DNA of 64,000 nucleotides from an uncultured Methanosarcinales archaeon (lineage in GTDB: Archaea > Nanobdellota > Nanobdellia > Woesearchaeales > SKGA01). The notes under the pieces were generated by a model. That model searched no databases, was not told the origin of the DNA, and worked only from the letters and a program-made list of their open reading frames with translations. The stretch's first letter is position 1. Each line of letters opens with the position of its first letter. Shown here piece by piece: positions 17,404-64,000 of this stretch. The stretch spans positions 6,414 to 70,413 of the forward strand of contig CAYRYB010000005.1 of NCBI GenBank assembly GCA_964428395.1, in the 5' to 3' direction. Both the position numbers and the translations under genes were made by a program.

Positions 17404-17465
17404 AAAAAATTAAAAAGACAATTTACCTGCATATTTATAAAGGAATTCTTCTTTATACTTCTTGG

Positions 17466-21932: not shown

Positions 21933-21964
21933 CGTTTTAATGCAGTATACTAGTTAGTAGAGAG

Positions 21965-22039
21965 GGCGACGCCCGGGATTTGAACCCGAACTAAGAGATC
22001 CACAGTCTCTTGTGCTAACCAAGTTACACTAACGCCACC
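21965..22039 (-). tRNA. tRNA-His (anticodon GTG) with genome-encoded G-1 opposite C73; no encoded CCA
   Basis: Hand-folded cloverleaf. Acceptor GUGGCGU/GCGUCGC (7 bp including 3 G-U pairs), D-stem GUGU/GCAC, anticodon stem AGAGA/UCUCU, loop CUGUGGA, T-stem UCGGG/CCCGG and T-loop UUCAAAU. Confidence 0.85.
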
Positions 22040-39212: not shown

Positions 39213-40243
39213 CTGACGCACACTTTACACTCTCAAAATCAATTGTAATCGAACAATACAACAAAGTAGCACAAGTAGCTGATGTTGTAAGTTATAGTTC
39301 AAAAACAAATCCTTTGGTAACTCCTGTTTTAGAAGAGGCAACAACAAGTTTGTTTAGTGTGCATTTAGTTAATGAATTAAAACATGTTAAAGATATGAGC
39401 CGGGTTTTGTTTTTAGCACAAGGTTTGACAACAGAGATTCTTGATGACTTATTTAGTGAAGGAATAAGGAAATTTGTTATTGATAACGAACCCGACCTTG
39501 ATTTGCTTATTTCTTATTTAGAACGTAGCGAAGAGAAAATAGAATTATTTCTTCGAATGAAACTTCGAGAAAACACTATTAGAACAGAACGATACTTTGT
39601 TTTTGGTATTGCCCAAGATGTTGTTAATCAACGTGTACGAGAACTCTGGGGTCATAAGAACATCTCTTCACTTGGTATTCACTTTCACAGAAAAACACAA
39701 AATATGGCAGAATGGAATTACGAATATGAAATAAAACAAGTTATCGATGAAGATGTCTTAGAAATTATTGATTTTCTTAATATTGGTGGAGGACTTCCTA
39801 GTACGTACGCAAACACGAACAAAAACGTTATTGATAGTATTTTTACAACACTTGGCAAACTTAAAACATTTCTACATGAAAAAGAAATTAAACTTATTAT
39901 TGAACCAGGGCGATTTATTGCAGCTCCAGCAGGAAAACTTTATACAAAAATTGTAAATGTGTATGAAAACAACATTATTGTTAACGCGAGTGTCTATAAT
40001 GCAGATATGGATGCACTCATTGTACCTGTGAAACTCTTAATTGAAGGCGAACTTGATAAAAATGAAGGCGAACCTTATGTTGTTAAAGGAAAAACACCTT
40101 GTAGTTTAGATTTATTTCGTTATCGAGTATATCTTAAAAACCCAAAAGTTGGAAATGAACTTGTGTTTCTTAATGCAGGAGCATACAATTTTACAACAAA
40201 CTTTTGCGATTTAGAAGAAATAAAAACAAAGGTGATTTTATGA
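39209..40243 (+). CDS. PLP-dependent fold-III decarboxylase (ornithine/arginine decarboxylase family, short form)
   Basis: PLP-Lys region VVSYSSKTNP, Gly loop NIGGGLPSTY, KGKTPCSLDLF (compare GPTCDSLD) and C-terminal NAGAYNFT. The ATGA overlaps dys. Confidence 0.7.
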   Translation: MTDAHFTLSKSIVIEQYNKVAQVADVVSYSSKTNPLVTPVLEEATTSLFSVHLVNELKHVKDMSRVLFLAQGLTTEILDDLFSEGIRKFVIDNEPDLDLLISYLERSEEKIELFLRMKLRENTIRTERYFVFGIAQDVVNQRVRELWGHKNISSLGIHFHRKTQNMAEWNYEYEIKQVIDEDVLEIIDFLNIGGGLPSTYANTNKNVIDSIFTTLGKLKTFLHEKEIKLIIEPGRFIAAPAGKLYTKIVNVYENNIIVNASVYNADMDALIVPVKLLIEGELDKNEGEPYVVKGKTPCSLDLFRYRVYLKNPKVGNELVFLNAGAYNFTTNFCDLEEIKTKVIL

Positions 40244-41022
40244 AAATCATTAGTATTCCTTTTAGTGGTGGAGGTCTTGAACATGGCAGTGGAGCAAACG
40301 AAGCACCAGACGCCATTAAAAAACAACTAGAAGAGTGTTATGCTGATGAAGATGGCGTTGAGCCGATGTTTGAACACATTACTGTAATGGTTGATGAAGA
40401 ACATGTTGCAAATAGTCATGAAGCAATTGAAAAAGTGATTGCAAGCAGTACTGAAAAGTCAATTCTTTTAGGAGGAGATCATTCTATTACGTATTCAACA
40501 GTAAAAGGCTTTGCGCAACATACTTCTGATTTTTTGTTCGTGGTCTTTGATGCACACCCTGATTTAATGCAAGATTTTGTTCCACCAACACAAGAATCAT
40601 TTCTTCGAGCATTAATTGATGAAGGAATTGTAAAGCCAGAACATTGTATTCTCATAGGTGTTCGCAATTGGGACAAACAAGAAGTTGATTATCTTAAAGA
40701 AAAGAATATTCTCTGCTATACGACGCAAGATATCTTTGCCAAAGGCATTAAAACAATCATGAGAGAAATTGTTGCTGCACTTAATAAACCCGTTTATCTC
40801 TCGTTAGATATTGATGTTGTTGATCCAGTAGAAGCAATCGGAACAGGTTACTTAGAGCATGGAGGACTTTCCAGCAGAGAACTTCTTTACGCGTTACAAA
40901 CACTTAAGCACACAAAAAAACTTGCAATGGCAGACATTGTAGAAGTAAATCCAACAAAAGACATTAACAATATAACTTCGAAACTTGCAGCTAAATGCGT
41001 TGTAGAGCTCGCAAATTTTTAG
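40240..41022 (+). CDS. speB: agmatinase/arginase-family ureohydrolase
   Basis: Metal-binding motifs GGDHSITYSTV, FDAHPD and SLDIDVVDP. The start is set at MKIISIPFSGGG (ATGA overlap) rather than the track's 40204. Confidence 0.8.
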   Translation: MKIISIPFSGGGLEHGSGANEAPDAIKKQLEECYADEDGVEPMFEHITVMVDEEHVANSHEAIEKVIASSTEKSILLGGDHSITYSTVKGFAQHTSDFLFVVFDAHPDLMQDFVPPTQESFLRALIDEGIVKPEHCILIGVRNWDKQEVDYLKEKNILCYTTQDIFAKGIKTIMREIVAALNKPVYLSLDIDVVDPVEAIGTGYLEHGGLSSRELLYALQTLKHTKKLAMADIVEVNPTKDINNITSKLAAKCVVELANF

Positions 41023-47465: not shown

Positions 47466-47590
47466 GCGGACCTGGAGGGATTTGAACCCTCAACCTACAG
47501 CTCACTACAACGCAAAATTGTCTATACATTGCATTATAACATTTTTTCGTTTTAGGAGGCTGTCGCCCTATCCAGATTAGGCTACAGGTC
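47466..47590 (-). tRNA. tRNA-Arg (anticodon CCT) with a 50-nt intron at canonical 37/38
   Basis: Acceptor GGACCUG/CAGGUCC is perfect. D-stem GCCU/GGGC, anticodon stem ACAGC/GCUGU, loop CU-CCU-A|A, T-stem GAGGG/CCCUC, T-loop UUCAAAU and discriminator G. The 5' exon is 47590-47552, the intron 47551-47502 and the 3' exon 47501-47466. Confidence 0.85.
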
Positions 47591-47794
47591 CGAAGCCTTT
47601 TTAAGAAGATTTTGCTTGCTAATAAATATACTTGTTTTTCATGCGTGTTTTTCTTTATTTACCCTTCTTGGCTCTTTTTTGTGAAATTTTACTATTTTTT
47701 AATCTTTTACTCTTATATTTTTTTGCTCTTTGCTTTTTTTCTTTGTATGTGCTTTGGGGTAGTATACAAATTATTTTGAATAACGTTTCGTAAT

Positions 47795-47851: not shown

Positions 47852-49699
47852 ATGGGAAAATCTTATATGAAAGGGGGAATAGTTCTTCTTATAGCTTTGC
47901 TTCTTACAGGCACGCTTCTTGCAGGAGCGCTAGCAGCAGAATCAAAATCCTTTACTGTGGTGAATTCGAAGGATTGGCATGACTTATACTTAGGAACCAT
48001 TTATGCTTCAGCAACAAATTCAGAATTTGTTTTTTTCACTAATCTTGCAGACACTCAATTAAAAACCAAGATGATGGCTCCTACCGACAAAATTACTGTC
48101 TTTGAATCAAAAAACAATCCTGTAGTAAAGAATTATCCTTCGCTTTTAAAGGTAAATGCTTACAAAAATGTTGATACAACCTTTTATGATTCTTTTTATG
48201 ATCTCCAAAAAATATTTGTAAATAATCTAAGAAAACACATAAAAGGATTTTTCGTATTTGATGCTTCATTTGGCATGAATCCTGTTGCAGCAGCGCCTTA
48301 TTTGGTAAAAAATTCTTATTTTCCTCTTTTTTTAGATGAACAAAGCTTTTCTTTTGTTCAATCAACAATAAAAGGAAAAAATACCTATATTGCAGGTCAT
48401 ATTCCTGTGCGTCAATTAGAGCACTTACAAGGAACTATCTTTTCAGGTTTTTCTTATGAAACATTAGATCAAGTAACCAAACTTGTCATTAATGATTTTC
48501 CCAATGCAAGCTGGGGTGTTCTAATCAAGATAGATATTGTTGATTTAGCGGCAATAAAACAAAAACTACCTGTCTTTGTTTTTTACGGCGATGCATATCT
48601 TGATACATTAGCAGATCTTTTAAAACAAACAAACATTACAGATTTTGAAGTGATAGGCGGTCCAACAGCCGATGTTGCACGAGCTCTTGAAATTCGTTCA
48701 CAACGAAATCTCAATTTCATGCTTAAATATGGTCGACGAGTGACAAATTATCCTGGATTTACACAAAACGTTTTAGAATTAGATTCTGCACCATTTCCGT
48801 ACCCGATAGAATCTTTAATAATAACAAATGCAATATACTACCCTAATATGGGTGTTTTAGCAATAACCTTTGATAACAAAGGAAATGTTCCCCTTCTTCA
48901 ATTTTCTAATCTTGAATTCGCAGGATCTGCACTTTCAGATACGGCAACACATTTTATTTTGCAGGGAGAACAAAAGACAATTCCTTTTCAAGTTTTACCA
49001 TCAACTGCAACAAATGATTTAACGGTAACCACGAGATATGGCGAATCTATTCCTTTGCAATTCGAAATAGGATCTAAAGAAGATTCATTATTTTACCAAA
49101 AGAATGTGACTTTAATTAACAATTATCAAGATGATGCAGTCATACAATATGTTTCTTCAGTTTTTGATACTACCAAAGGTCAATTGGAATTAACGTACAA
49201 AAATCCAACAAGTAAACCTATTCATATCTATGCTGAACTTTTCATTGATGACGCACAAGTTCTTTCATCGCCAGTAATAGCTATTCCTGCAGGTCAAAAA
49301 GATGTGGTGATTATCAAAACACCGTTCATACCTGATGCTGACTTGCTAAAAAAATCAGTTCAAATTACTACGTATTATGGTCATAAAGATACGTTGCTTT
49401 CACAAACAAATACTATTGTAATTAAGGAAAAAGGTCCACTAGGAGCTTTAACAGGATGGGTAACGCTTGATTACTCTGATACGCCTGCTAAAGCAGGAAT
49501 AACGACCATTGTCATTCTCTTTATCATTGCATTATTACTTTTCTTCATCTTTAGAAGAAAAAAGAATAAAAATAATAAAAAAAGAGTGTTTGTCAATGAG
49601 AAAAGAAGACGCTCATCAAAGAAAAAACCTTCTTTTTCAAAGAAAGCAACAGCAAAAAAATCTGTAAAGAAATCTTCTCGACGAAAACCATCCCGATAA
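47852..49699 (+). CDS. secreted type-I membrane-anchored surface protein with a K/R/S-rich cytoplasmic tail
   Basis: Signal peptide (IVLLIALLLTGTLLAGALAAES), a ~540-aa ectodomain, a TM helix ITTIVILFIIALLLFFIF, and a RRKKNKNNKKR...KKSSRRKPSR tail. Confidence 0.7.
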   Translation: MGKSYMKGGIVLLIALLLTGTLLAGALAAESKSFTVVNSKDWHDLYLGTIYASATNSEFVFFTNLADTQLKTKMMAPTDKITVFESKNNPVVKNYPSLLKVNAYKNVDTTFYDSFYDLQKIFVNNLRKHIKGFFVFDASFGMNPVAAAPYLVKNSYFPLFLDEQSFSFVQSTIKGKNTYIAGHIPVRQLEHLQGTIFSGFSYETLDQVTKLVINDFPNASWGVLIKIDIVDLAAIKQKLPVFVFYGDAYLDTLADLLKQTNITDFEVIGGPTADVARALEIRSQRNLNFMLKYGRRVTNYPGFTQNVLELDSAPFPYPIESLIITNAIYYPNMGVLAITFDNKGNVPLLQFSNLEFAGSALSDTATHFILQGEQKTIPFQVLPSTATNDLTVTTRYGESIPLQFEIGSKEDSLFYQKNVTLINNYQDDAVIQYVSSVFDTTKGQLELTYKNPTSKPIHIYAELFIDDAQVLSSPVIAIPAGQKDVVIIKTPFIPDADLLKKSVQITTYYGHKDTLLSQTNTIVIKEKGPLGALTGWVTLDYSDTPAKAGITTIVILFIIALLLFFIFRRKKNKNNKKRVFVNEKRRRSSKKKPSFSKKATAKKSVKKSSRRKPSR

Positions 49700-49802: not shown

Positions 49803-49926
49803 ATTCATATAATGAACAACAAACTATTGTGGGAAGTAGTTATTGGAAGGGTGTGGATGTAATTTCTTCTGCAACAAAAACCACAAACAAAGATAGTGTT
49901 AGCTTTAAGGAAAAATTTCCTCAGGG

Positions 49927-52900
49927 GTGGGTTTTATTAGAAGTGTCACACGCAAGTTTAGTGTAATTGTAGTAATCATGTTTACGCTTGTTTTAGCGAT
50001 AGCATTCCTTCCTTCATTAACTACTTCTTCAACGGATAAAACTCTTTCTCTTTATTTTCCACAACTTTCCCAACGAACCTTAAATATCACATCACAAACA
50101 GGGAATTATACCATAGAAAAACTTACACGCTTGCCCATTGTCTTTAACCAACCGGTACAATGGGAACTCGTTCTTACCGACGGTGTACAACTCTTTAACG
50201 TGCAATATGAAACTCCTGCAATTTACTTAACACAAAGCCAAACAAACACAGTAAGTACTTGGCAAAAAACATTAACGTTTAGTACCAATTTTACTGAAGG
50301 ATACAGCAATATTTCTTATAAAGAATTCTTACCAACAGTTGCAAATCTCACTCTCACCCCTTCACTTAACTACACCCTTGGGTATAACAACGCTTTAACC
50401 TTTACGCTTCCACAACTTGATTTAAAAGAAATAGTCCATTTGCAAACCACCCTTCCCCAACTCACACCCGCAAATAGTACGAACACCGCACCTTTTCAAA
50501 ACAATACAAACACCACATCTTTTCAAAATGAAACCCTTTCTACAACAAACATCCTTTCACACCCGCAAGCAATGCCAGAGAGCAAACAAGCAAAAAATAA
50601 GTATGGTTTGTTTGCTTTACATTTGGCAAAAGGACAAATAAAGAAACTAGAACTATCAAACGATTTTTTATTAACAATTGAACTGGAAAATATTACTTCA
50701 TCAAACTCCACTATCTTACATATCGATTTACCAACTTCCTTACAAAAAAATGAATATCTTTACGTATGGTATGTTGCGTCAGCAGATTATTTTAAACAAC
50801 TACCTTACACGCTTTCTTCAAATAGAAAAACACTCTTACTTGACTTGGCAAACATACCTGTTACACCTTATCAAGGAAAGATGAATTTTAGACTTAAGAT
50901 AGGACTGCCCACCTACCCTGTCAACATTACTACAGTATCGCCTCAACAAGCAGATGTTATGGCAGATGGAAAAGAACTTGTTCTTACAACATCAAAAGGA
51001 AATTTGGCAAAGATACGTGTTGTTGATCCAAAAAATATTCCTTCGCTACCACCACGTGCAGGCGTTTTTACTCATAAACTGCTCAAATTTTCCTTAACTA
51101 ACCTAACATCACCAAACGTTACTATTAATTTAACGTTTGATTACCTGCCTAGAACTTTTCAACTCTGGAAATTTAATCCGAATACGAACGTTTGGTACAC
51201 GTTTCCTTACACAAAATTAACTGCAAATACTATTGCTTTAACTCTTGTTGATGGTGGTTTTGGCGATGATGATGGGATAGTCAATGGCATTATTGAAGAT
51301 GACTTAGGTATAACAACCGGTTGGCAAAACGAAAGTTTTTCCTGGAGAATGGCCTTTAATGTTTCAAACAACGGTGCGGGAGATTTAACAAATTACCAAA
51401 TGCTTGTTTTACTCAATACTTCAAACTTTAATTTTAGTAATGCGCAAGATGATTTAGATGATATACGCGTTGTGTATTATAATGCTTCATCAGATACAGA
51501 AACACTTCTTTCTTACTGGATAGAAAATTCAGGACTAAATTTTAGTGCTGGCAATGAAACTGCCCGTGTTTGGTTTAAAGCACCCTATCTAGCTAACAAT
51601 ACGAATACAACATTTTTTGTTTATTATGGCAATCCAACAGCAAACTCCATTGAAAATGGAAGTGCAGTCTTTTTGTATTTTAACGACTTTGAAACACAAG
51701 TTGGTTTTGATACAGGAGACATGATGCCTGTACGAAGCACTACACGGGTAAAACATGGAACGTATGGACTAGACGGTTTTGGAAGCGGTAGTTATGATCA
51801 AGCATACACCAGCGGACTTAATAGCAGTCGTAATATTATTTTAGAATCATGGGTGCAAGGAAGAGATTACACATCAGGACCAGATACTTCTCTTGCTGCA
51901 ATCATGGTTGGTCATCCACCAGGAGGCGCGGATCGAAACGGATACCAAGCATATCTTGATGAACGAGGAGCTCCCTACTTAGGAATACGAAGAGATTATC
52001 AATCAACACAAATAATTGCCAGCGCAGACTCACCTACCATTACTTTTGACACATGGTATCTTTTACAACTTACTTGGCTTAGTAATAACTCGTTAATTTT
52101 TCGAGTGTATGATACGAACTATAATCTTTTACAAACGTTGTCTGCTGTTGATTCCAATCATACTGATGGAGAATTTGGTGTTGGAGCATACTATAACGCG
52201 AGTTGGGATGACTTTCGAATGCGACAATGGGCAAGTCCAGAACCAAACATAGCAAGCGTTATAGGAAGTGAGTTCGTAGGAATAATTAATATCAGTATTG
52301 ACAAGCCAACAGATGCTTCGCAACAAACTCGTTTACAATCATTTACCATGAATGGAACGCTCTCATGCTCGCGAGGAGATAATTGCGGTAATGTTTCAAC
52401 ATATTTTCAATATTATACAACTGCTGCACCGACACAAACATGGCTTCAAACATCATATGAAGATTTTAATAGCTCTTTGACATCAACAAACATTTCTGCA
52501 ACACAATCAGGAACAATTCTTCTTAATGTAACTAATGGTGGTGCGCAATGGTGGAACACGCAATGGCCTTACCGACAAGACTTTGAAATAACAAACGTAA
52601 CTGCAAATGTTACTGATTATTCGTTTAAAATTCAACTTAACAGCTCGCTTGTTGGTACTCATTTTAACTGGACAACAGCATTTAATGAGAGTCGGTTTGT
52701 ATGGGTAAATGAGACTTCTGGTCTTTTGGAATCGTGTAACTATTGGATTGAAAACTGGAACATTGCAGGACAAAATGCTACCATTTGGGTGAAAATTCCT
52801 TTTTTAGAAAGTGGAATGAATACTTCAGTGTATCTCTACTATGGCAATTTGAATGCTCTTTCGCAATCAAATTCTAGCAACACGTTTTTGTTTTATGATG

Positions 52901-55900
52901 ACTTTAGTGATGGTAAGACTGATAAATGGACTGTACAAGGAGGAACATGGCAAGTAGAAAACAATGAATCTTATTATCAAACAACAGCTATAGCATCTTA
53001 TCTGATTACTGAAGCAGGGGATAGTTCTTGGCAGGATTACACTATAGACACGCGAATAAATATGACGGGTTTAGCAGGCTCAACTTATTTTGCAGGAATA
53101 CTTTACCGATACCAAGACGTAGATAATCATTATGCAGTTATTTTAGATGACCGAGATAATGACAGTATTTGGCTTCGACAATGGGTGGGAGGAGATTATG
53201 CATCACACAACCCTCAAGAATGGACAGACGTTACCATTAATTTAGATGTTTGGAGTCCTTTACAAGTGGATATTTTTACAAATAAAGGTGGAACACATAC
53301 ATTAAGAGCTCACTTTGACGGAAAAGTAAAAGAATATAATTACTCAACATTTAATTCAGGAAAAATAGGGTTGATGACATATAACACGCAACCACGTTAT
53401 GATTATGTTCGTGTACGAAAATTTACAACATCTAACTTAGTATTAAAAAATAATTCTGAAGAAGAATTACTTGTAGCGTCTAATGGAAGTTATTATTCAG
53501 ATATTCACGATTTTACATCTCAAGATGTTAGTTTTGGAAATATTTACTGGACAGCATTAACACCTAATCAAACTAACTTAGATATTTACACTCGTTCATC
53601 AGTAGGTTTAGGAGGAACATGGTACTCACCAAATTGGCCTTATCAAAGAGAAATAAATGTGAGCAATACTGCAGGTGATCAAGAAGAGTATCAAATATTT
53701 ATTGAAGAAAATCTTTCATCGGCTTATGCTGCAGGAAAAATAAACGCTAATTGTAGTGATGTGCACTTCACCTATCTTAATTTAACGTCATTATTACAAC
53801 AAGAAGTCTCCTTTTTTACCGATGACTGTAACCTCACTGCTAGTGATATTGCACAGTTCTGGGTAAAAATGCCTCTCTTAGAAAATTCATCAGCAAATAA
53901 AATATTTCTTTATTATGGTAACAACACTTTAGTTGACGCAAGTGACATTGATGCAACCTTTAGTTATACAACTCCTCGAAGAATTGGATACATTGTAAGC
54001 AGCAAACTTGCAGCGAATGGTTTGAAGCTTACTAGTTTTTCAAATGGAAATGAAATAGATGTTGGTTCAAATACGTACAATCAAGATTATCTTAATGTAA
54101 CAGATATTTCTTTTACATCAGCATCTGATGAAATTAAAGTAAAAAATTTAGCACAACTTGCAGGACGAGGAATGAACGGAGATAGTATTGTTCCCATTTC
54201 TTGGGCAGGAACATTTTTTACCTACGATGGTATGCGAGCAAGTGACGACACTATATGTATGCTTAGTCCCTATGGTACTGCTTTTGTAAACATCAGTGAA
54301 CTTGGTGTTGAACGATGGTCGGGAAATGTTACTAGTGCAGGTTATTGTTATAATGGAACAGATTTCTCAGCAAACAACGCTTTGATTATTAATGCAACAT
54401 TACCTATTTTAGCATTTCATGATGGAGGACTTTCAAGCAATGAGGATGCATGGCCTTTTTATCCAGCACAAAATGAACCTCTATATGGAACATCGTCAAC
54501 AACCACTCCTATAGGAGTTGGTTCAAGTATTACTTCTCTTGTTTGTTATGGAGATAATGGAACATCTCAAGCAGCAAACAATATTCCTGCATATCAAGAT
54601 AGTTCTTGTGGTACATTAGGTGTTAGTAATCGAAATCAAGGCTTAGGGGCTGCTGTAAAAATTGTTCCTTCTACAGGTTATATTGGTGCAATTCAACAAG
54701 CAGATAGTGATGGAACAGAATCAACAACATATGCTCCCCGAAGAGAGATGGGAACAAGAATGGGCTCTGGACAAGACACACAATATATTGCTATTGTTAC
54801 GCCTTACGCAGGAGTGAATTGCAGTTTATATGATCAAAGTGGTTATGTAGCATCAAACATCACAACAACAAATTCTACGCAAGGTGTTGCAAAAGGCTGT
54901 TTTGGTTGTGGCAATAATAATGTATATGTTAATGGACCATGGGTTATGCAATGTGATAAGCCTGTATGGGCTTATTTTGAAAAAGACTATAATAATGAAG
55001 AAACATCACTTCTTAACCAAAAACAAATGCGTCAATATGTTTATCCATCACCGACAACAGCAATAAGTACAAAAGAATGTAATTATACGGAAGTTTCTTT
55101 GCATCCTGAAACATATTTTCTTTGGTCGCCTTGGTTTTTAGAAACAAATGGTACAGCAATTAGTTCTCCAAGTAATCGTTATGTACAATATAAATCCATT
55201 TTTGGAACTACAAACACCACAAGGTCAGCAGTACTATATGATATATCTTTAGAATTCAAAATTATTACAAATACTTGGAAAAATATGGCATCTTCTGGCA
55301 CACTTTTTACGGCGAACAATCCTGTTTTTACATTACTTAACTCATCAGTTAATGCAACACCAACACTTTTGGTAGTGCCAAAAGAAACAGGAAATTATTC
55401 TTTGCGACTTTATGTAAATGGATCGGGATCTGAAAGCCCAGTAATTTCTTTAAATAGATCTATAGCAATTTTTATGCAACCAGCATTCTCTAGTTTTAGT
55501 ACTTCACAAACAACAGTACCAAGAGACGATACTATACCATTAACCGCACTCTTTCTTGATGACGTGGCATCACCAATGAAATATTATAACGTTACTTTTT
55601 ACGATGAAACGGGTAATGGTTCTCGTTATGTTATAGGTTCTGTTCTTACCGATAAAAATGGTTACGCAACACTTACTTATGTTATACCCTCTGATGCAAG
55701 CTATGGAGATCACACGCTTAATGTAAGTTATTTGGGTTCAACAGCATCGTTTATTAAACGTGCAGAAAGAACAACAACTATTCATGTCTCTTCAACACCG
55801 ATTATTCATTCAACCAGTACATCACCAACAAATTTTGGTTATGGTTTTAATATATCCATTTATGCAAACATTACTGACGGTGTGGGACTTGATAAAGTAT

Positions 55901-58900
55901 TTGTTACTATTACAAATGAATCATCACAAAATCAGACGCATGAAATGAACCTTATTAATGGTCTTTATACATACAATTTTAGCAATCCTTGGATAAAACA
56001 AAATTACACTTATACCCTTATTGCAAACAATACTGATGGTATAACTACAACACTTGGAGACAACTCTTTTTCATTATTTGTTCAAACACTTTTTGATTTA
56101 AACACAAGCAAGCAAGCATACAAAAATAACGAAGTAGTAACTCTTGCAACAACAAAAGGAAGATGGCCAAAAATGAATGGTTGGCTTTACAGAATACCTA
56201 TTAATTTAACTTCACAGGCGCAATTGTATGATTATCAAGTAGAAATTGATTTAGACTCAACAAACTTTAAATTCGATCAATCAAACAATGGTTCAGACAT
56301 ACGCTTTAGATATTATAATCAATCAACAGGAAACGAAACAAATCTTTCTTATTGGATACAAGACTATAATGAAACAGCAAAAACAGCAACTATCTGGGTA
56401 AAACTTCCAGAAATAACAAACACAACAAATACACTTTTTTATCTTTACTACAAAAACGATAATGTTACAACCACAAGCAATGGTACAGCGACTTTTATTT
56501 ATTTTAATGACATGGAAGGACCTTTTACCTGGACGGATTATGGTTCAGGAGATATTCGTCAAAGAAACTCGCGAGCATATAGTGGTATGTATTCTGCACA
56601 TAAAGAAAACAATAATGATCCAAATGGAGGCTATGACAATGTTGGTACAACATTCGGACGAAATGTTATCATGGAATTTTTGGTAAATAGAAACGCAGCA
56701 TACAGTGGTGGTGCATATGATAGAATAGGATTTATCGATAACTCTGGAAATGGTTACGGATGGGTATATGACCATAGTGGTAATAGGATTATAGCTGATG
56801 TAAGAAACAATTATAGTGCTTCAACATTAAGTCCTGTTTCAGCACCAGATGCTATGGACGAATGGGTCTTTGGACGTTTTATTGTAAAATCAAGCGGGGT
56901 TGTTGAAGCGTATCGTTACGTTAATGGAACGCTTTCAGGAAATATGGCAACAATAGATTCTAGTTATAATAGTTTTACACGAGTCTATATTTTTGGAGGA
57001 AACGATTACTGGGTTGATGACATACGCATTAGAAAAAGTGATGATACGGCATTTCTTAATGTGCAGTATGGAACAGAAGAGGTAGATGCACTAGGTCTTC
57101 TTAATCTTGCTAATACCAAGTTTAAAGGATATCTAAAAATGATTGTGCAACATTGGACAGGCAGTTCTTGGCAAAATATTCTTCCACCAATCATAGAAAA
57201 CCAAGAACACGTCTTAGATAATTACGAAATTTTAGATATATCGTCACTTTGGCAAACGGCAGGAGCATGGAATACAACAAATAGGAATCCTGGAACGTAT
57301 AGGATTTATGCTGTCATGGAAAATCCTAATAGAATCACATTAGAAAATTATGATGATAGTCTTCTTTTAGGAACGCATAATTTTACTATTAAAGAATCAG
57401 CAGTGAGACTCACTAATTTTACATACGAAAACAAATACGAAAAAGGATTAACTGAATACGAAACAGGAGATACTATTGATTGGATAAACGCAACCGTGAC
57501 AGCGTTTGACAATATTGCTTATGATGCTAACATTACCTTAAGTCTATTGGATAATGGTAAAATATCAACAGGATGGGGCCCCCAAGGAGAAACAAAACTT
57601 TGTGGTGACTTATTAGAGAATCAAACGTGTGAGAAACGATGGGATAATGCAACAAATGGTTATGCTATTCCAATAGATGCAACAACAGGTACGTATACTT
57701 TTTTTTGGGGAGTGAATTCTACTTCAAAGAATGGGCAAATATATAGTAATAAATCTATATCATTTTCTATTCACAATATACCTTCAACAGCCAACACTGT
57801 TCTTGGTACAACTCGAATCTATAAACCAAACAGCACCACCTACAACGTTACTTTCACTAATTTATGGACTAAAAATATTACTGCAGTAAACGTTTTTATT
57901 AATTGTCCTGTAGTTACGGGTTTTACCTGCATGAATATTACACCTCAAACTTTTGCAAGTATTGAAAATAATACGAACTTTACTGTGTCTTTTAACATAA
58001 CAGCTAATGAGAGTGTTTCTTCAAATGATTATGCTCTTTCTGTTCAATTAAATTATACTGATCCTGGAGAAGAAAATAGATCTTGGAATGATGTAGCAAG
58101 CACTTCTTTGGAGGTTCGACTAGCAGGAATATTGGTTATTACAGATAATACTCATCCTACAACGGTAACAAGAAGTCATTCCTCTTTTTTTAGTGCGTAT
58201 ATGAATAACACAGGAGATGTACTTGCAACAAATGCATGGCTTAATTATACTTTTCCTGCGTTTTGGAGTTTAACTGCAGGCACTCAAAACAAAACTTTTG
58301 CTTCAATTCCTATAAATGCAATTGCGTGGAACAATGTATCTTTACAACCATCACAAACGACAACGCTTGGATCAGCTTCTATTCGTTTAGATTCTAATGC
58401 GGATGATGGTCGAAACGATTTCAAACAATACACTGTGGTAGTTTATGCAAATACTACTCTTACTCTCACAAAAAACCTTTCAATAGTTAATCGGGGAGAA
58501 AAAATAAAACTAACAGGCACATTACATTATGATAATGGTACGGCGGTTTCTAACCAATGGATTTCTTTTTATGATCAAACAAGAGGAATTTATTTGGGAA
58601 CAAATAAAACAAATATTGCAGGACAAACAAGTATTGAATATTTTATTAATGCATCAACAACCTTGGGTGCTCATACTATTAATGCAAGTTACAATGGAAG
58701 TGATGCATTATATCTTCGAAGTGTTTTGAACAGAAGCAGTATTGATGTTCATGAGAAACCACAACTTTCAGGGATTATTATTTCTCCAAACCTAACCGGT
58801 TATGGAAATACTATTTATATTAATGTAACTATTACCGACGCAGATGTTTTTGATGAAATAGATGCTGCGTGGGTAAATATAACCTATCCTGATGAAACCA

Positions 58901-61900
58901 CCACAATATTTTCAATGACTAACGTTCCACCAGATGACTACTATCTTCTTTTTAATGATACGTGGCAATTGGGAAACTATACCTTAACTATTTATGCAAA
59001 TGATACAACCGGCGCATTAAATAAAAGTGACTTGTATACATTTACTCTTAATGCCAGTCTTTTGTTAGGGATGCAAACAACAAACGATACGTATTCGCAA
59101 AATGAATATGTAAATCTTACTTCTACATCAGAAACAACGTGGTGGAATGAAAACTGGCCGTATCGCGAAGCGATAAATATTACTAATACTGCTGGTAATC
59201 TTACAGAGTATCAAATATTTATCAATTATGATTTTGCAACGCCTTACTCTGAAGATCATATACAACAAGATTGTAGAGATATCCGTATCACGTATTATAA
59301 CACAACACGCAATAAAGAAGAAGAAATACCTTACAGTATAGATGTTTGTAACCTTTCTGATTCTACCAACGCAACACTTTGGTCAAAAATACCTTTCCTT
59401 ATCAATGGAACAACAACAATTTATCTTTATTATGGCAATCCAACAGTAAGCACAACACAAAATCTTACAGCAGTTTTTACATATACTACAAAACACACAA
59501 TTGGCTATGTGGTAAGTTCAACATCAGTAACTAATGGATTAACAATTGCTAGTTTGGATGACAACAATGATATTAGTGTAGGAAGTAATACGTATTCTAT
59601 GAATGAACTGCAAACGACAACTCTTTCTTCAGGTTTAAGTATAGGAACTAAAATTCAAGCAACAAAACTTGTACAAGTAGAAGGAAATGGAGATGATGAT
59701 GATATGATTGTTCCTGTATCTTGGGCGGGAACTGAATTTTCTTATGGAGGAATGGATTCTTCAACAGATACATTTTGTGTTGTAAGCCCTTGGGGAAATG
59801 CAACGGTAGAAGTACGAGATGCAGGAACGTTACGCACAACGATGACAGTAAATAGTACAGGAACTTGTTATGAGTATGATACTAATGCAAATGCTGCAAC
59901 AAGAATTAATTCAACTATTCCCATACTTGTCTTTCATAATGGAGGATCAAATGCCAGACGTGCATGGGCTTGGTACCCTGCGACAAGAAAAGATTTATTT
60001 TCAATAGTTTCAACAAGCACGCCTGTTGGCAATGGACCAAACGCTGCAATAGTGAATTGTTATGGTAGTGATGATAATTATGATGTTTGGAACTCGGTTT
60101 CAGCTAATGATGACTTCTCTTGCACAGGAATTACCAATACAGGAAGCGGTAGTGGTGCTGCAGTACGTATTACTACAAACCAGCCAATAGGCGCGATACA
60201 ATTTGCTGATGGAGATGGTGCAGATGCAACAACTGCGGTTCCACAACAAGAAATGAGCACTTTATTTGGCTCATCTTTAAATGCAGAATATATTGCAATT
60301 GCAACTCCTTATAAAAATACGAATTGTTCTGTTTATGATTCCTCAGGACTTGTGGGAACAACAACAGTAGCAGGGTCTGATGCAAACAAAGTCTATAAAG
60401 GTTGCTTTGGTTGTGGTAATAGTAATGTATATGTTAATGGACCGTGGAAACTAGAATGTACTAATCCTGTTTGGCCGTACTATGAAGAAGATACTGATAG
60501 TGATGAAACAAATCTTTTTGGTTATAAACAAATGAGACAATTTGTTTATCCAACACCACAAGTAAGTTTAACTGGAGAACAAAGCATTGGTTCAAAGATT
60601 TACAATAAGCAGACTAACATACATAAAGGTCGCTTACTTATGACTATTGAGCAAAATAATAGTGGTGTTTGGCAACACGTTGCAACAATTATTAATGATA
60701 CTACTGGTCTTCGCACCATTACTGCGACAGGACTTGATCTTGCAACTATTTGGAATCCTATCTCTTGGTTTACAGGAACTCACGATGCAGGAATGTATAG
60801 AGCATATGCAGAACTAGAAGATACATCACACGCTGTTCTTAAAAATTATGATGGAACAAACATAAGTGGTTCATGGAAATTTACTATAGAAGAACCTGCA
60901 TTAAATTTAAACATTTCAACTATTAGAATTTATGATGTTACCTCAACAGCAGAAGCAAATTGGAAAATCTATACGGGTAACCTCATTGATTCTGGACTTA
61001 ATAAGTCCTACACGTTATACAAAGATAATATTTATCGAGTAGAAGTAGATGTGGACAATGTAGGAAACGATGATTGGAACATTAATCAAACAAATATAAG
61101 TTACACTAATTTTAATTCAAGTTGGTTTATTAACGAAAGTGATTACCTTTGGTATTCTAATTTGAGCACTATTGCAACTAGAAGAACTGATACTTCAAAA
61201 ATGTCAGGAACATTTAATGGCTCTATTGATTGGAACATTACTTCTCTTGGAGGTATTGTGCCCTCTTTGGAAACGGCAACATTCTTTTTTATTGTTAATC
61301 TTACACAGGATGATACGAAGAACGTACGATTTAGAATTCAACATACTTCATTTGATAAATCAGATTATTCTACCTTACAAGCCATTATTTTCACAGCAAG
61401 TGCGCCATCTTTACTAAATAATATATACAATATTACGAAGACAAAAGTTATCAGAGGAAACACAACCCTTCTTTATGCGCGTTGGGATAAAACGATAGCA
61501 GAAGCAAATTTTACGTACAATACCGCAACGCCGGTTGGATATACAACTTACTCAAACAACAGCATAAATAATGCTGAAAACTGGACAAACCATACTTTAC
61601 AAACAGGATCAACATGGTTTTTAGGAAATCATAGCGCAAAAATAAGCGTAGAAGATCAAAGTGGTAATGTGAATGATACGCTTTCTTATTTGACTTTTGG
61701 TGTTTGGGGTCTTGCGCAACTTACTGATATACAACTAAACGCTAGCAATATCAATGTTGGTGAGACAACAGAAATTAAATGTAAAGTAACTGATTATACA
61801 GACTCGGATGCAGTAATTGCAGGTTACAATGTTAGTTTTAGAAATAGCACTGATACTATAGGATGGAATGTTACTGATGGAACTGGTTGGGCAGTATTTG

Positions 61901-64000
61901 ATTATGTAGATCAAACAGCAGGAACCGAGCAAGTAGGATGCGCCATTGTTGAAAACAAGACTGGATTTTATACTATCGGAACATTAAATACAACTTCAAT
62001 AACAGTTCATACTACAGAACAAGTTTATCCGACTTATTCATCACTTTCTGGACCAAGCATTGCACATAAAGGAGATTCTGTTTTTCTTGCTAGTTATTGG
62101 CAAGATAACTTTGCACTAGATTTTGCAAACCTTTCAACAAACGCTTCTGGAACTTATGTGAATTATTCACGTGTAGAAATTTCCGGTCTTGCAGACTGGG
62201 CAAACTTTACCTACACTATTCCAACGACAATGACACCAGGAATGTTGGGATGGAAAGTACATGGAGCAGATACTTCTGGAAATGTGAATACCACCCTTGT
62301 TGAAAATATTTCTGTATGGGGATATTCTTTACTAGCTGATTCCTCAATAAATCCTGCGAGTGTACAACAAAGCAATCCAACAACAATAAAATGTCAGGTA
62401 ACTGATGCTAATGACTCAACAAACCTTACAAATTACAATGTAACTTTTTATTATAAAAATCAATCAACATCAACATATCTTTATTTAGGATATAATATTA
62501 CCTCTGCGGATGGTTGGGCAAACTATACATTTGCGCTAGATAACGCCACTACTTATGATATTTTATGTAATATTACAGATGACACCAACAAACAATATAA
62601 TGTCACCAGTCCAAGTAGCGCCATAAAACAACTTAATGTTGTATCTAGTGCAGATGTTTATCCGCCAGTTATTATCAATAGCAACTATGGAATTAATGAC
62701 ACGTCACTTTATCGCGGAGATTGCTTTCAAGTGTATGGTGAATGGAATGAATCACTTAACGTTTCATGGATAGAATATAATAACACGCCAACAAATATTA
62801 GTAGATATAATGGTACGCCTCCATTTACTGCTAACTGGACAAACAGTAGTATTTGTACAAACAGCTCATGGGAGCCAGGAACGTACACCGTGAAACTTTT
62901 TGCAAAAGATCAAGTAGGAAATCTTAACGATACTCTTTCTTATTTATCATTTGAAGTAAAAGCCAGAGCAAATCTTTCATGGTATGCGCCAACAGGCGAT
63001 CTTAACAGAACGTGGATAAATATGAGTTGTCAAGTTAACGATTATGATACAGGAGATCCAATAAGTGGTTATACCGTTCGATTTTATGATGGAGATTTAG
63101 GAAGCACATTAGGAAATGTGCAAACAAATGCAAGTGGCATTGCAACGCTAGAATATAATTATGCAACTATTCGTTCAGGAGGTCCTATTTATGTAGGACC
63201 TGATGATCTTTCCTGTCAAATATTTGCAACGACAGGATACGAAATTGCAACAGGTTTTGTACAAGAAACCGTTGATTTTTATGGAACTTTATCTGCAAAC
63301 ATAACAACGCCAATCACAGATGCAATATTGCACACTGGTGTTACAGAAAATCTTGTTGTTGCTACTCTGGATGAATTTGGAAATACACCAAAAGATCAAA
63401 ATGGTAATACTGCAAGTATTACTGCAAATTGGACAAACTCAACTGGAACGCAACTCGCAATGGGAACAAGCACTGCGTGGAATGTGCCTGCAACATATAC
63501 AACAGGACCTGAAACTCTTCACGTAGCAACAACAGCATCATATTATTACAATGGATCAGATACAACGAATGTTGTTATTTGGGGTTATTCTGATGTTACG
63601 TTATCAACACCTACAACAGGTGTTTATCCTAATAATACGCTTCTTACTATGACTTGTCGAGCAACCAATAGTGCTACTGGCCAAGGAATTAACACATATC
63701 CAATACTGTTTTATAATGATACAACACTTCTTGCTACTTTACCTGCAAACACAACAGGGTATGCAACGTATCAAATAAACACTAACAGCATGAGCGAAGG
63801 ATCAAGAACACTTCGTTGCGAGATAGATAACAATGCTACATTACTGTACAATAAAAGTTCTGCTTATCAAAGCAACGTAACAGTTATTGTAGACACTTCT
63901 GCGCCACAAATAACGTATGTGTTAACCAGCGATACTAATGGAACCTATGCGCGTGATTGGATACTTGTTAATGCAACTATTACAGAACCTAATATTGATA
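49927..64000 (+). CDS. giant secreted surface/adhesin-like protein, 3'-partial (>4,690 codons open to the window edge)
   Basis: Triplet-by-triplet reading from the in-frame stop at 49906-49908 to 64000 meets no stop. The GTG at 49927 gives a canonical signal peptide (GFIRSVTRKFSVIVVIMFTLVLAIAFLPSLTTSS). The first ATG is at 49978. Repeated W-x-Y-R...YYGN (DUF2341-like) modules, LamG-like modules and Ig-like repeats run throughout. No competing ORF of 60 aa or more is found on either strand across 13 kb. Confidence 0.85.
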   Translation, partial: MGFIRSVTRKFSVIVVIMFTLVLAIAFLPSLTTSSTDKTLSLYFPQLSQRTLNITSQTGNYTIEKLTRLPIVFNQPVQWELVLTDGVQLFNVQYETPAIYLTQSQTNTVSTWQKTLTFSTNFTEGYSNISYKEFLPTVANLTLTPSLNYTLGYNNALTFTLPQLDLKEIVHLQTTLPQLTPANSTNTAPFQNNTNTTSFQNETLSTTNILSHPQAMPESKQAKNKYGLFALHLAKGQIKKLELSNDFLLTIELENITSSNSTILHIDLPTSLQKNEYLYVWYVASADYFKQLPYTLSSNRKTLLLDLANIPVTPYQGKMNFRLKIGLPTYPVNITTVSPQQADVMADGKELVLTTSKGNLAKIRVVDPKNIPSLPPRAGVFTHKLLKFSLTNLTSPNVTINLTFDYLPRTFQLWKFNPNTNVWYTFPYTKLTANTIALTLVDGGFGDDDGIVNGIIEDDLGITTGWQNESFSWRMAFNVSNNGAGDLTNYQMLVLLNTSNFNFSNAQDDLDDIRVVYYNASSDTETLLSYWIENSGLNFSAGNETARVWFKAPYLANNTNTTFFVYYGNPTANSIENGSAVFLYFNDFETQVGFDTGDMMPVRSTTRVKHGTYGLDGFGSGSYDQAYTSGLNSSRNIILESWVQGRDYTSGPDTSLAAIMVGHPPGGADRNGYQAYLDERGAPYLGIRRDYQSTQIIASADSPTITFDTWYLLQLTWLSNNSLIFRVYDTNYNLLQTLSAVDSNHTDGEFGVGAYYNASWDDFRMRQWASPEPNIASVIGSEFVGIINISIDKPTDASQQTRLQSFTMNGTLSCSRGDNCGNVSTYFQYYTTAAPTQTWLQTSYEDFNSSLTSTNISATQSGTILLNVTNGGAQWWNTQWPYRQDFEITNVTANVTDYSFKIQLNSSLVGTHFNWTTAFNESRFVWVNETSGLLESCNYWIENWNIAGQNATIWVKIPFLESGMNTSVYLYYGNLNALSQSNSSNTFLFYDDFSDGKTDKWTVQGGTWQVENNESYYQTTAIASYLITEAGDSSWQDYTIDTRINMTGLAGSTYFAGILYRYQDVDNHYAVILDDRDNDSIWLRQWVGGDYASHNPQEWTDVTINLDVWSPLQVDIFTNKGGTHTLRAHFDGKVKEYNYSTFNSGKIGLMTYNTQPRYDYVRVRKFTTSNLVLKNNSEEELLVASNGSYYSDIHDFTSQDVSFGNIYWTALTPNQTNLDIYTRSSVGLGGTWYSPNWPYQREINVSNTAGDQEEYQIFIEENLSSAYAAGKINANCSDVHFTYLNLTSLLQQEVSFFTDDCNLTASDIAQFWVKMPLLENSSANKIFLYYGNNTLVDASDIDATFSYTTPRRIGYIVSSKLAANGLKLTSFSNGNEIDVGSNTYNQDYLNVTDISFTSASDEIKVKNLAQLAGRGMNGDSIVPISWAGTFFTYDGMRASDDTICMLSPYGTAFVNISELGVERWSGNVTSAGYCYNGTDFSANNALIINATLPILAFHDGGLSSNEDAWPFYPAQNEPLYGTSSTTTPIGVGSSITSLVCYGDNGTSQAANNIPAYQDSSCGTLGVSNRNQGLGAAVKIVPSTGYIGAIQQADSDGTESTTYAPRREMGTRMGSGQDTQYIAIVTPYAGVNCSLYDQSGYVASNITTTNSTQGVAKGCFGCGNNNVYVNGPWVMQCDKPVWAYFEKDYNNEETSLLNQKQMRQYVYPSPTTAISTKECNYTEVSLHPETYFLWSPWFLETNGTAISSPSNRYVQYKSIFGTTNTTRSAVLYDISLEFKIITNTWKNMASSGTLFTANNPVFTLLNSSVNATPTLLVVPKETGNYSLRLYVNGSGSESPVISLNRSIAIFMQPAFSSFSTSQTTVPRDDTIPLTALFLDDVASPMKYYNVTFYDETGNGSRYVIGSVLTDKNGYATLTYVIPSDASYGDHTLNVSYLGSTASFIKRAERTTTIHVSSTPIIHSTSTSPTNFGYGFNISIYANITDGVGLDKVFVTITNESSQNQTHEMNLINGLYTYNFSNPWIKQNYTYTLIANNTDGITTTLGDNSFSLFVQTLFDLNTSKQAYKNNEVVTLATTKGRWPKMNGWLYRIPINLTSQAQLYDYQVEIDLDSTNFKFDQSNNGSDIRFRYYNQSTGNETNLSYWIQDYNETAKTATIWVKLPEITNTTNTLFYLYYKNDNVTTTSNGTATFIYFNDMEGPFTWTDYGSGDIRQRNSRAYSGMYSAHKENNNDPNGGYDNVGTTFGRNVIMEFLVNRNAAYSGGAYDRIGFIDNSGNGYGWVYDHSGNRIIADVRNNYSASTLSPVSAPDAMDEWVFGRFIVKSSGVVEAYRYVNGTLSGNMATIDSSYNSFTRVYIFGGNDYWVDDIRIRKSDDTAFLNVQYGTEEVDALGLLNLANTKFKGYLKMIVQHWTGSSWQNILPPIIENQEHVLDNYEILDISSLWQTAGAWNTTNRNPGTYRIYAVMENPNRITLENYDDSLLLGTHNFTIKESAVRLTNFTYENKYEKGLTEYETGDTIDWINATVTAFDNIAYDANITLSLLDNGKISTGWGPQGETKLCGDLLENQTCEKRWDNATNGYAIPIDATTGTYTFFWGVNSTSKNGQIYSNKSISFSIHNIPSTANTVLGTTRIYKPNSTTYNVTFTNLWTKNITAVNVFINCPVVTGFTCMNITPQTFASIENNTNFTVSFNITANESVSSNDYALSVQLNYTDPGEENRSWNDVASTSLEVRLAGILVITDNTHPTTVTRSHSSFFSAYMNNTGDVLATNAWLNYTFPAFWSLTAGTQNKTFASIPINAIAWNNVSLQPSQTTTLGSASIRLDSNADDGRNDFKQYTVVVYANTTLTLTKNLSIVNRGEKIKLTGTLHYDNGTAVSNQWISFYDQTRGIYLGTNKTNIAGQTSIEYFINASTTLGAHTINASYNGSDALYLRSVLNRSSIDVHEKPQLSGIIISPNLTGYGNTIYINVTITDADVFDEIDAAWVNITYPDETTTIFSMTNVPPDDYYLLFNDTWQLGNYTLTIYANDTTGALNKSDLYTFTLNASLLLGMQTTNDTYSQNEYVNLTSTSETTWWNENWPYREAINITNTAGNLTEYQIFINYDFATPYSEDHIQQDCRDIRITYYNTTRNKEEEIPYSIDVCNLSDSTNATLWSKIPFLINGTTTIYLYYGNPTVSTTQNLTAVFTYTTKHTIGYVVSSTSVTNGLTIASLDDNNDISVGSNTYSMNELQTTTLSSGLSIGTKIQATKLVQVEGNGDDDDMIVPVSWAGTEFSYGGMDSSTDTFCVVSPWGNATVEVRDAGTLRTTMTVNSTGTCYEYDTNANAATRINSTIPILVFHNGGSNARRAWAWYPATRKDLFSIVSTSTPVGNGPNAAIVNCYGSDDNYDVWNSVSANDDFSCTGITNTGSGSGAAVRITTNQPIGAIQFADGDGADATTAVPQQEMSTLFGSSLNAEYIAIATPYKNTNCSVYDSSGLVGTTTVAGSDANKVYKGCFGCGNSNVYVNGPWKLECTNPVWPYYEEDTDSDETNLFGYKQMRQFVYPTPQVSLTGEQSIGSKIYNKQTNIHKGRLLMTIEQNNSGVWQHVATIINDTTGLRTITATGLDLATIWNPISWFTGTHDAGMYRAYAELEDTSHAVLKNYDGTNISGSWKFTIEEPALNLNISTIRIYDVTSTAEANWKIYTGNLIDSGLNKSYTLYKDNIYRVEVDVDNVGNDDWNINQTNISYTNFNSSWFINESDYLWYSNLSTIATRRTDTSKMSGTFNGSIDWNITSLGGIVPSLETATFFFIVNLTQDDTKNVRFRIQHTSFDKSDYSTLQAIIFTASAPSLLNNIYNITKTKVIRGNTTLLYARWDKTIAEANFTYNTATPVGYTTYSNNSINNAENWTNHTLQTGSTWFLGNHSAKISVEDQSGNVNDTLSYLTFGVWGLAQLTDIQLNASNINVGETTEIKCKVTDYTDSDAVIAGYNVSFRNSTDTIGWNVTDGTGWAVFDYVDQTAGTEQVGCAIVENKTGFYTIGTLNTTSITVHTTEQVYPTYSSLSGPSIAHKGDSVFLASYWQDNFALDFANLSTNASGTYVNYSRVEISGLADWANFTYTIPTTMTPGMLGWKVHGADTSGNVNTTLVENISVWGYSLLADSSINPASVQQSNPTTIKCQVTDANDSTNLTNYNVTFYYKNQSTSTYLYLGYNITSADGWANYTFALDNATTYDILCNITDDTNKQYNVTSPSSAIKQLNVVSSADVYPPVIINSNYGINDTSLYRGDCFQVYGEWNESLNVSWIEYNNTPTNISRYNGTPPFTANWTNSSICTNSSWEPGTYTVKLFAKDQVGNLNDTLSYLSFEVKARANLSWYAPTGDLNRTWINMSCQVNDYDTGDPISGYTVRFYDGDLGSTLGNVQTNASGIATLEYNYATIRSGGPIYVGPDDLSCQIFATTGYEIATGFVQETVDFYGTLSANITTPITDAILHTGVTENLVVATLDEFGNTPKDQNGNTASITANWTNSTGTQLAMGTSTAWNVPATYTTGPETLHVATTASYYYNGSDTTNVVIWGYSDVTLSTPTTGVYPNNTLLTMTCRATNSATGQGINTYPILFYNDTTLLATLPANTTGYATYQINTNSMSEGSRTLRCEIDNNATLLYNKSSAYQSNVTVIVDTSAPQITYVLTSDTNGTYARDWILVNATITEPNID
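53612..55055 (+). repeat. intragenic module A (DUF2341-like + ~400-aa Cys-containing module); diverged copy at 59137-60565
   Basis: The protein-level repeat is about 40% identical. Shared motifs are NWPY(Q/R)(R/E)(E/A)IN(V/I)(S/T)NTAG, LYYGN, IGY(I/V)VSS, VP(I/V)SWAGT, YKGCFGCGN(N/S)NVYVNGPW and QMRQ(Y/F)VYP. Confidence 0.75.
59137..60565 (+). repeat. intragenic module B (paralogous to 53612-55055)
   Basis: See module A. The copies are separated by about 5.5 kb within the same ORF. Confidence 0.75.

Follow-up and report, generated by a model that had tools for sequence, protein, structure and literature searches.

Giant surface proteins and the locus under study

The described proteins that come closest to the one analysed here are the SPEARE giants of nanohaloarchaea, e.g. 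SVXNc_0300 with 9,409 residues and BNXNv_0298 with 8,880 residues (PMC10266531), the DUF2341/FhaB proteins of more than 4,000 residues from Patescibacteria (candidate phyla radiation, CPR; PMC11809585), and the PilY1-type DUF2341 proteins of arCOG03508 encoded in the type IV pilus (T4P) loci of Methanococci (PMC4858521). Our subject is a giant gene that begins near position 49927 on the forward strand of a 64,000-nucleotide stretch of contig CAYRYB010000005.1 (assembly GCA_964428395.1, positions 6,414 to 70,413; "the window" refers to this whole stretch) and is still open at its edge. We lean towards regarding the product as an acidic surface protein of Woesearchaeota (DPANN) with predicted Sec-dependent export and predicted heavy N-glycosylation.

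The general resemblance to the SPEARE proteins is considerable: both are giant, acidic, Sec-exported (by prediction in the present case) and rich in immunoglobulin (Ig)-like domains, both belong to DPANN genomes of ~1 Mb, and contact with a host has been proposed for both. The SPEARE proteins, however, contain WD40 propellers, transmembrane segments and a VirB4/TraG-like ATPase (PMC10266531), none of which occurs in the giant or in the C-terminal part of its orthologue. We detected neither a sequence relationship nor an adjacent gene for a secretion ATPase, and the giant is built instead from DUF2341 units and a four-sandwich beta module. Since WD40 domains, transmembrane segments and a VirB4-like ATPase are all lacking, it represents a family distinct from SPEARE with a similar presumed role, and its identification as a SPEARE-type secretion protein, which would call for a C-terminal transmembrane segment in addition to the WD40 and VirB4/TraG-like ATPase domains, was rejected. 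The published SPEARE lengths also qualify the claim, made in a first-pass annotation of the window, that the protein would be among the largest in any archaeon: it is indeed large, but not exceptional for DPANN, where two longer proteins are known, and 17 of the best 150 relatives exceed 4,000 residues.

The Patescibacteria proteins share with the giant DUF2341, their size, predicted surface location and proposed role in adhesion, as well as an origin in ultrasmall, probably host-dependent cells, but they are bacterial and contain regions of the FhaB type, and some of them have an autotransporter partner. The arCOG03508 proteins have DUF2341 in common with it and, like it, have been proposed to act as adhesins at a surface structure, but the giant greatly exceeds them in size, differs in the rest of its architecture and is not encoded in a pilus locus. 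The nearest relative is MCF7798375.1 from a Woesearchaeota metagenome-assembled genome (MAG; GCA_021734105.1), which has the same domain order, the same flanking genes and 61% sequence identity; it comes from another species, and the window copy is ended by the end of the contig. Further Woesearchaeota giants, e.g. USN45765.1, share the modules and the terminal domain. This family is present in public databases under automatic names, and the gene had been called "unannotated" mistakenly, as the source assembly has a gene call and the NCBI nr database holds the orthologue as "DUF2341 domain-containing protein". A search of the literature found no paper on giant proteins of Woesearchaeota, nor any that deals with the accession of the sample. 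The new elements are the four-sandwich module, the terminal domain, a conserved partner gene and the fixed synteny, while novelty at the level of domains is modest.

Integrity of the gene

The forward frame that contains GTG 49927 and ATG 49978 is preceded by a TAA stop at 49906-49908 and then continues for 4,691 codons to position 63999 without a stop. In the local DNA (~35% G+C) a random codon would be a stop in about 7% of cases, i.e. one per ~14 codons, and the probability of finding none over the giant frame at this base composition is ~1e-154. No other long open reading frame (ORF) exists in any other frame between 49.7 and 64 kb. The first-pass annotation was therefore right about the open giant frame, and also in its explanation that the program-made list of ORFs, which ends at 49699, omits it solely for running off the window.

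The window is part of a 71,104-bp contig from a short-read metagenome assembly (ENA ERZ23499380, SONG20-1_SAMN10739806_METAG-scaffold_20) that reaches 3,145 bases further and on which an exact look-up placed the 615-residue protein encoded just ahead of the giant. The gene call on this contig, which starts at ATG 49978, comprises 5,722 residues, i.e. at least 1,048 codons more than in the window, and is still open at the contig end. Extension downstream, proposed earlier as the way to the stop codon, thus lengthened the frame to at least 5,722 codons but did not reach a stop, which is absent from the window and the source contig alike. Searches for sequence that would extend the gene gave no match in a scan of GTDB genomes with the last 500 residues, nor in JGI metagenomes, either by exact 50-mer search or by a scan with the last 1,000 residues.

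An independently assembled orthologue (MCF7798375.1, P0003 in our set) is complete with its stop codon and has 7,549 residues. BLAST aligns it with the window giant in a single collinear segment spanning residues 21-4691 (4,671 aligned, 61% identity). In a global alignment each 200-residue bin is 46-78% identical and internal insertions or deletions are at most 5 residues long, and P0003 goes on for 2,877 residues past the aligned part. By this comparison the window ORF would probably encode the N-terminal ~62% of one protein, with a likely length of ~7,500 residues and a mass of about 0.8 MDa. Both the collinear similarity and the conserved genomic position (see below) place the giant in the family of MCF7798375.1.

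The stop missing from window and contig and the short-read metagenomic data would be compatible with an artefact or a decayed gene, i.e. with genes fused by misassembly or with a pseudogene open by chance, but we give this explanation next to no credence. The stop-free run is far too improbable, and the frame is collinear with an independently assembled complete gene, with even conservation and tiny indels; neither an in-frame stop nor a splitting frameshift, which the first-pass annotation had named as possible flaws, was found. The region contains no tandem or near-identical DNA repeats that would make it prone to chimera formation (the most similar pair has 76% identity over 161 nt), and its composition equals that of the rest of the genome, with a G+C content at third codon positions (GC3) of 0.215 in the giant vs 0.227 in adjoining genes. 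Because of the collinear complete orthologue, the absence of repeats and the matching GC3, frameshift, chimera and pseudogene were all rejected.

Domain architecture

Residues of the giant are counted from GTG 49927, and the boundaries of DUF2341 units were taken from a self-comparison of the protein. The features of the locus, all on the forward (+) strand, are as follows.

47852..49699, +, upstream neighbour, a 615-residue type I membrane protein with signal peptide, C-terminal transmembrane helix and very basic Lys/Arg-rich tail
49923..49938, +, start region; a Shine-Dalgarno-like GGGGTGG overlaps GTG 49927, with ATT 49936 then 6 nt on
49927..64000, +, giant ORF of 4,691 codons, open at the window edge (no stop, longer gene call, collinear orthologue)
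49927..50031, +, predicted signal peptide or signal anchor, residues 1-35 (n-region with R5/R9/K10, hydrophobic core at residues 11-29)
51052..51312, +, choice-of-anchor U domain, residues 376-462 (NCBIfam NF041766, 62.3 bits vs a cutoff of 32)
51313..51696, +, DUF2341 unit 1, residues ~463-590, then a ~200-residue beta domain at residues 590-790 (PF10102, self-comparison)
52534..52905, +, DUF2341 unit 2, residues ~870-993 (PF10102, self-comparison)
53602..53943, +, DUF2341 unit 3, residues ~1226-1339 (PF10102, self-comparison)
53944..55086, +, four-sandwich beta module, copy 1, residues 1340-1720 (no Pfam or NCBIfam family)
55504..56136, +, Ig-like region (Big_3_5/MG2-like), residues ~1860-2070 (weak Pfam matches under the gathering score; duplicated at residues 2879-3102)
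56188..56520, +, DUF2341 unit 4, residues ~2088-2198, then a beta domain at residues 2200-2375 (best Pfam stretch 2121-2198)
57835..58056, +, NPCBM_assoc (CARDB-like) beta-sandwich, residues 2637-2710 (PF10633, cutoff 24.4 bits)
58561..59136, +, second copy of the Ig-like region, residues ~2879-3070 (31% identical to residues 1889-2110)
59134..59460, +, DUF2341 unit 5, residues ~3070-3178 (PF10102, self-comparison)
59461..60591, +, four-sandwich beta module, copy 2, residues 3179-3555 (44-47% identical to copy 1)
61417..63999, +, array of Ig-like repeats (bMG3/CarboxypepD_reg-like), residues 3831-4691, extending past the window (self-similarity, weak bMG3 match)

DUF2341 (Pfam PF10102) scores 227.3 bits in total against a gathering score of 23.4 and is found in five separate stretches. 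Units 3 and 5 each adjoin a four-sandwich module of ~375 residues on their C-terminal side, while the ~180-residue beta domains that follow units 1 and 4 are related to each other (hhalign 88%). The NPCBM_assoc match reaches 26.7 bits on the whole protein and 32 on the isolated segment, and the C-terminal Ig-like array has a period of ~200 residues. The recurring motifs noted in the first pass are real internal duplications, with identities of 26-47%. In the orthologue, the part beyond the window contains Big_13, DUF2341, Big_7, Big_3_5, two choice-of-anchor-U-like stretches, CARDB, and a hydrophilic C-terminal domain of ~200 residues that also forms the extreme C-terminus of 11 related representatives. 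Searches of the window part and of the C-terminal 2,949 residues of the orthologue against Pfam and NCBIfam gave no hit to a catalytic, ATPase or nuclease domain, and a comparison of the whole giant with PDB sequences gave no match.

Among relatives the number of module copies differs. The protein at locus L014 (GCA_054039615.1, 8001-28136), with 6,711 residues and a different neighbourhood, has three four-sandwich modules, whereas the Zod_Metabat.644 MAG (L003/L007, JAFGOT010000006.1) has two modules 5.5 kb apart in an ORF that spans the whole 7-kb locus. This variation indicates that the N-terminal half has been rearranged between lineages; the C-terminal half is collinear.

The four-sandwich module

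The ~375-residue module matches no family in Pfam (E<=0.1) or NCBIfam. Its relatives were found by an exhaustive HMMER profile search, on which our picture of the family is built; a word-indexed search with the module or with the profile of 23 sequences returned only 1-3 short proteins. The HMMER profile matched 549 cluster representatives, 271 of them at E<1e-30, and in most of these representatives a DUF2341 unit lies directly N-terminal of the module. In GTDB genomes the module occurs in Woesearchaeota, Nanoarchaeota, Aenigmatarchaeota, Thermoplasmata and Methanosarcinales, and also in one Chloroflexota and one Gammaproteobacteria MAG. As it is present in archaea outside DPANN and in bacteria, the role of the module is not specific to episymbiosis.

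An AlphaFold model based on the 23-sequence alignment (an earlier model from 3 sequences, with a pLDDT of 49, was discarded) has a pLDDT of 89.6 and a pTM of 0.89, and shows an all-beta structure with about four sandwich subdomains, of which subdomains 2 and 4 are detectably related. The best structural match, to the core of the domain, is the TM1070/ASRT (ASRAH) sandwich (PDB 1nc7, 2ii7), with a sequence identity of 10-17%. Members of the ASRT/TM1070 superfamily, extracellular proteins included, have been argued to bind sugars (PMC2739507); in the giant, by contrast, four sandwiches form one compact unit. This overall arrangement has no counterpart in the PDB, where Foldseek retrieved generic strings of Ig domains with TM-scores of at most 0.16. 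The whole module is matched by a predicted structure, that of the protein FirrV-1-C4, which belongs to the brown-alga phaeovirus Feldmannia irregularis virus a (Foldseek E 1.3e-16, TM-score 0.75, 14% identity). Conserved positions of the module include D254, D256, G257, E268 and E353 together with paired cysteines, which suggest a putative metal site and putative disulfides.

N-terminus, predicted glycosylation and surface location

Residues 11-29 form the sole hydrophobic segment in the 4,691 residues according to a Kyte-Doolittle scan, and the same N-terminal feature is present in the orthologues P0002, P0096, P0077 and P0072. The signal peptide postulated in the first-pass annotation is thus borne out by this hydropathy scan as a predicted signal peptide or signal anchor, with a charged n-region ahead of the only hydrophobic stretch of the protein.

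The ATG chosen by both gene callers truncates the conserved n-region, and the peptide SVTRK[FY]SV is conserved upstream of it, so GTG 49927 appears a better start than ATG 49978 and the true start very probably lies upstream of the latter. The orthologue in GCA_021734105.1 (locus L002, 9910-10001) has GAGGTGG followed after 8 nt by ATT, with no ATG, GTG or TTG upstream, and in L014 (7979-8001) the homologous codon is TTG. Elsewhere in the window GGAGG/AGGTG precedes the start of genes by 5-8 nt. Initiation at ATT 49936 is a possibility suggested by these alignments.

The giant contains 218 N-X-S/T sequons, compared with 95 +/- 8 in composition-matched shuffles. Their density, 4.65 per 100 residues, is about eightfold that in neighbouring and other ORFs of the window (0.59), and orthologues have 4.9-5.8 per 100 residues. 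The protein is acidic (pI 4.6). The extracellular location proposed in the first pass is consistent with this enrichment. Beyond the N-terminal hydrophobic stretch no internal or C-terminal transmembrane segment is present, and the C-termini of orthologues are hydrophilic.

Genomic context and conservation

The RNAs of the window include an archaeal signal recognition particle (SRP) RNA and an intron-bearing tRNA, and its protein-coding genes include GatD/GatE, CDC48, a cluster of ribosomal proteins and RpoD, PGK, GAPDH and PPDK. The giant is located in the core chromosome rather than in an island. All named relatives come from Candidatus Woesearchaeota, one of them from a 1,131,583-bp contig. 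The DPANN-type archaeon of the first-pass annotation thus fits the archaeal SRP RNA, GatD/GatE, the intron-bearing tRNA and the Woesearchaeota orthologues on contigs of 1.07-1.13 Mb, and a DPANN archaeon with a genome of ~1 Mb is well supported. The "large share" of the genome ascribed to the gene was an overestimate, as ~22.6 kb amounts to about 2% of ~1 Mb.

The order DS, (ABC), GatD, GatE, LPG-synthase-like protein, ~610-residue protein, giant is kept in GCA_021734105.1 (L002) and on a 1,065,401-bp ENA contig (L015) that carries a 6,220-residue relative, so that synteny is found in three genomes including that of the window. Between the window genome and GCA_021734105.1 the giant is 61% identical, which is comparable to GatD (65%) and the LPG synthase (60%); the strong selection postulated earlier is thus reflected in constraint along the entire length. 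The 615-residue type I membrane protein upstream belongs to no Pfam or NCBIfam family, but a counterpart immediately precedes the giant in both L002 (62% identity) and L015 (36%), and the protein is a possible candidate for a partner of the giant. A 575-residue paralogue of it is located downstream of the giant in L002.

Possible functions

The reading that we hold with moderate confidence is that of a long glycosylated surface fibre whose lectin-like modules serve attachment. The N-terminal signal or anchor would move the chain across the membrane and might retain it there, while the remainder, ~70 consecutive beta-sandwich domains, would project from the cell as a fibre that, fully extended, could measure a few hundred nm, on par with the diameter of the cell. 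The Ig/MG2/CARDB-like domains would act as spacers, and the DUF2341 units with the following beta domains and the two four-sandwich modules could provide multivalent glycan-binding sites that link the cell to the glycosylated envelope of another cell or to extracellular polysaccharide. The conserved C-terminal domain of ~200 residues seen in orthologues would form the tip, and the 615-residue protein encoded upstream might be the partner in the membrane. Surface-type domains point in this direction, namely choice-of-anchor U, the five DUF2341 units and NPCBM_assoc in the giant, and Laminin_G_3 (PF13385 in P0004 and P0017) and CARDB in relatives. DUF2341 proteins of archaeal pilus loci have been proposed as pilus-tip adhesins (PMC4858521), a role in adhesion has been proposed for the DUF2341-containing proteins of more than 4,000 residues in Patescibacteria (PMC11809585), and attachment of DPANN cells to their hosts has been proposed for LamG-type surface proteins (PMC10266531); all three are proposals and not experiments. 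The host attachment and episymbiotic lifestyle that the first-pass annotation put forward are putative and likewise deduced from domain content.

Several observations weigh against the attachment fibre. The match to TM1070 covers just 83 of the 381 residues of the module. The ConA/LamG nature of the domains that follow the DUF2341 units is putative, as Pfam searches with segments and phmmer against the PDB found no LamG/ConA match in the giant, and hhalign of such a domain with the Laminin_G_3 of a relative gave less than 4%. No C-terminal anchor or sorting signal was found in orthologues, and the N-terminal segment is the one visible anchor. Finally, adhesins that determine host specificity usually evolve fast, while the giant is as conserved as its housekeeping neighbours and keeps a fixed position in the core genome, and for this reason a structural role would fit its conservation at least equally well.

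Such a role, in which the giant would be the main glycoprotein of the cell coat (a substitute for the surface layer (S-layer), a sheath or a glycocalyx scaffold) that maintains integrity rather than binds partners, with the 615-residue protein as its anchor, we consider unlikely overall, yet deserving of serious attention. Conservation at the level of housekeeping neighbours, synteny in three genomes with a fixed place beside a conserved type I membrane protein, and the restriction of named relatives to Woesearchaeota with genomes of ~1.1 Mb speak for it, as do the extreme density of sequons and the acidic pI, both typical of archaeal S-layer glycoproteins, and the window shows no S-layer gene of a canonical kind. 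On the other hand, neither an S-layer family nor an anchor of the PGF-CTERM type is matched, the giant is 10 to 20 times as long as known S-layer proteins, a chain of ~70 domains is more usual for fibres and adhesins, and a rearranged N-terminal half with variable module copies between genomes would be odd for a protein forming a lattice. A non-catalytic, multivalent scaffold that captures environmental polysaccharides for nutrition, in the manner of scaffoldins or surface glycan-binding proteins, seems improbable. The resemblance of the modules to carbohydrate-binding modules and TM1070/ASRT, the usual association of NPCBM_assoc and CARDB-like domains with glycosidases, and the occurrence of the module in Thermoplasmata, Methanosarcinales, Chloroflexota and Gammaproteobacteria would agree with it, but the giant contains no glycoside hydrolase, lyase, dockerin or cohesin domain, and no sugar transporter or hydrolase is encoded in the 50 kb upstream or beside orthologues, except for one GH114 gene 4 kb downstream in L014. 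Least credible of the functional alternatives, and very improbable in our judgement, is a T4P tip adhesin of the PilY1 type or like the arCOG03508 proteins of methanococcal pilus loci. It is suggested by the DUF2341 domains and by the proposal that large DUF2341 proteins of archaeal T4P loci are tip adhesins (PMC4858521), but ~7,500 residues far exceed the length of those proteins, the N-terminus shows by inspection no class III ([KR]-G/A) signal, and no pilin, T2SSE/FlaI-type ATPase or TadC is encoded by any of the ~45 window ORFs or next to orthologues, which led us to reject it.

Returning to the attachment fibre, a bolder version of it is speculative and rather doubtful: the giant and the 615-residue protein might together constitute an essential surface organelle present throughout the Woesearchaeota, a fibre that equals the cell in length and would be the basis of holding partners, with an undescribed glycan-binding four-sandwich unit shared with other archaea, some bacteria and a virus of brown algae, and with a gene that may start at ATT.

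Woesearchaeota are an abundant, uncultured group whose lifestyle has been deduced almost wholly from genomes. As the giant takes up ~2% of a ~1 Mb genome, keeps a fixed position and is conserved at the level of a tRNA amidotransferase, it is likely to be central to their biology, and it offers a concrete target for antibodies, cryo-electron tomography and metaproteomics. The module, a well-modelled, unclassified domain of ~375 residues found in at least 549 protein clusters, can be expressed and tested on glycan arrays. The general picture is unchanged, as giant adhesin-like surface proteins of DPANN and CPR were already known.

Other genes of the window

Rfam matches a 125-nt stretch of the - strand (47467-47591, 56 bits), flanked by the LPG-synthase-like gene and the gene of the 615-residue protein, to tRNA; ARAGORN does not list it, and it probably represents an archaeal tRNA with an intron. 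The genes of deoxyhypusine synthase, Orn/Arg decarboxylase and a member of the arginase/agmatinase family form a cluster (38277-41022, +) that corresponds to a route from polyamine to hypusine and is also conserved in related genomes, upstream of the giant locus. The archaeal SRP RNA (17459-17733, +) scores 97.5 bits, close to the Rfam gathering score of 96.5, which suggests a divergent or reduced SRP RNA.

Two proteins of the window have a reduced recognisable domain content. The 398-residue protein encoded at 6581-7777 (+) contains only the P-loop and lid domains of MCM, without the N-terminal MCM domain, i.e. it is a truncated or minimal MCM-like ATPase, and the 584-residue protein encoded at 31079-32833 (+) can be recognised only by the C-terminal proteolytic domain of Lon protease at residues ~90-215, with no AAA+ domain detected. 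The leucyl-tRNA synthetase (LeuRS) encoded at 19278-21932 (-), next to the gene for tRNA-His (21964-22038), shows a strong match to the PF13603 editing domain (220 bits). This model is typical of LeuRS of the bacterial type, and would suggest a horizontal origin of the window enzyme.

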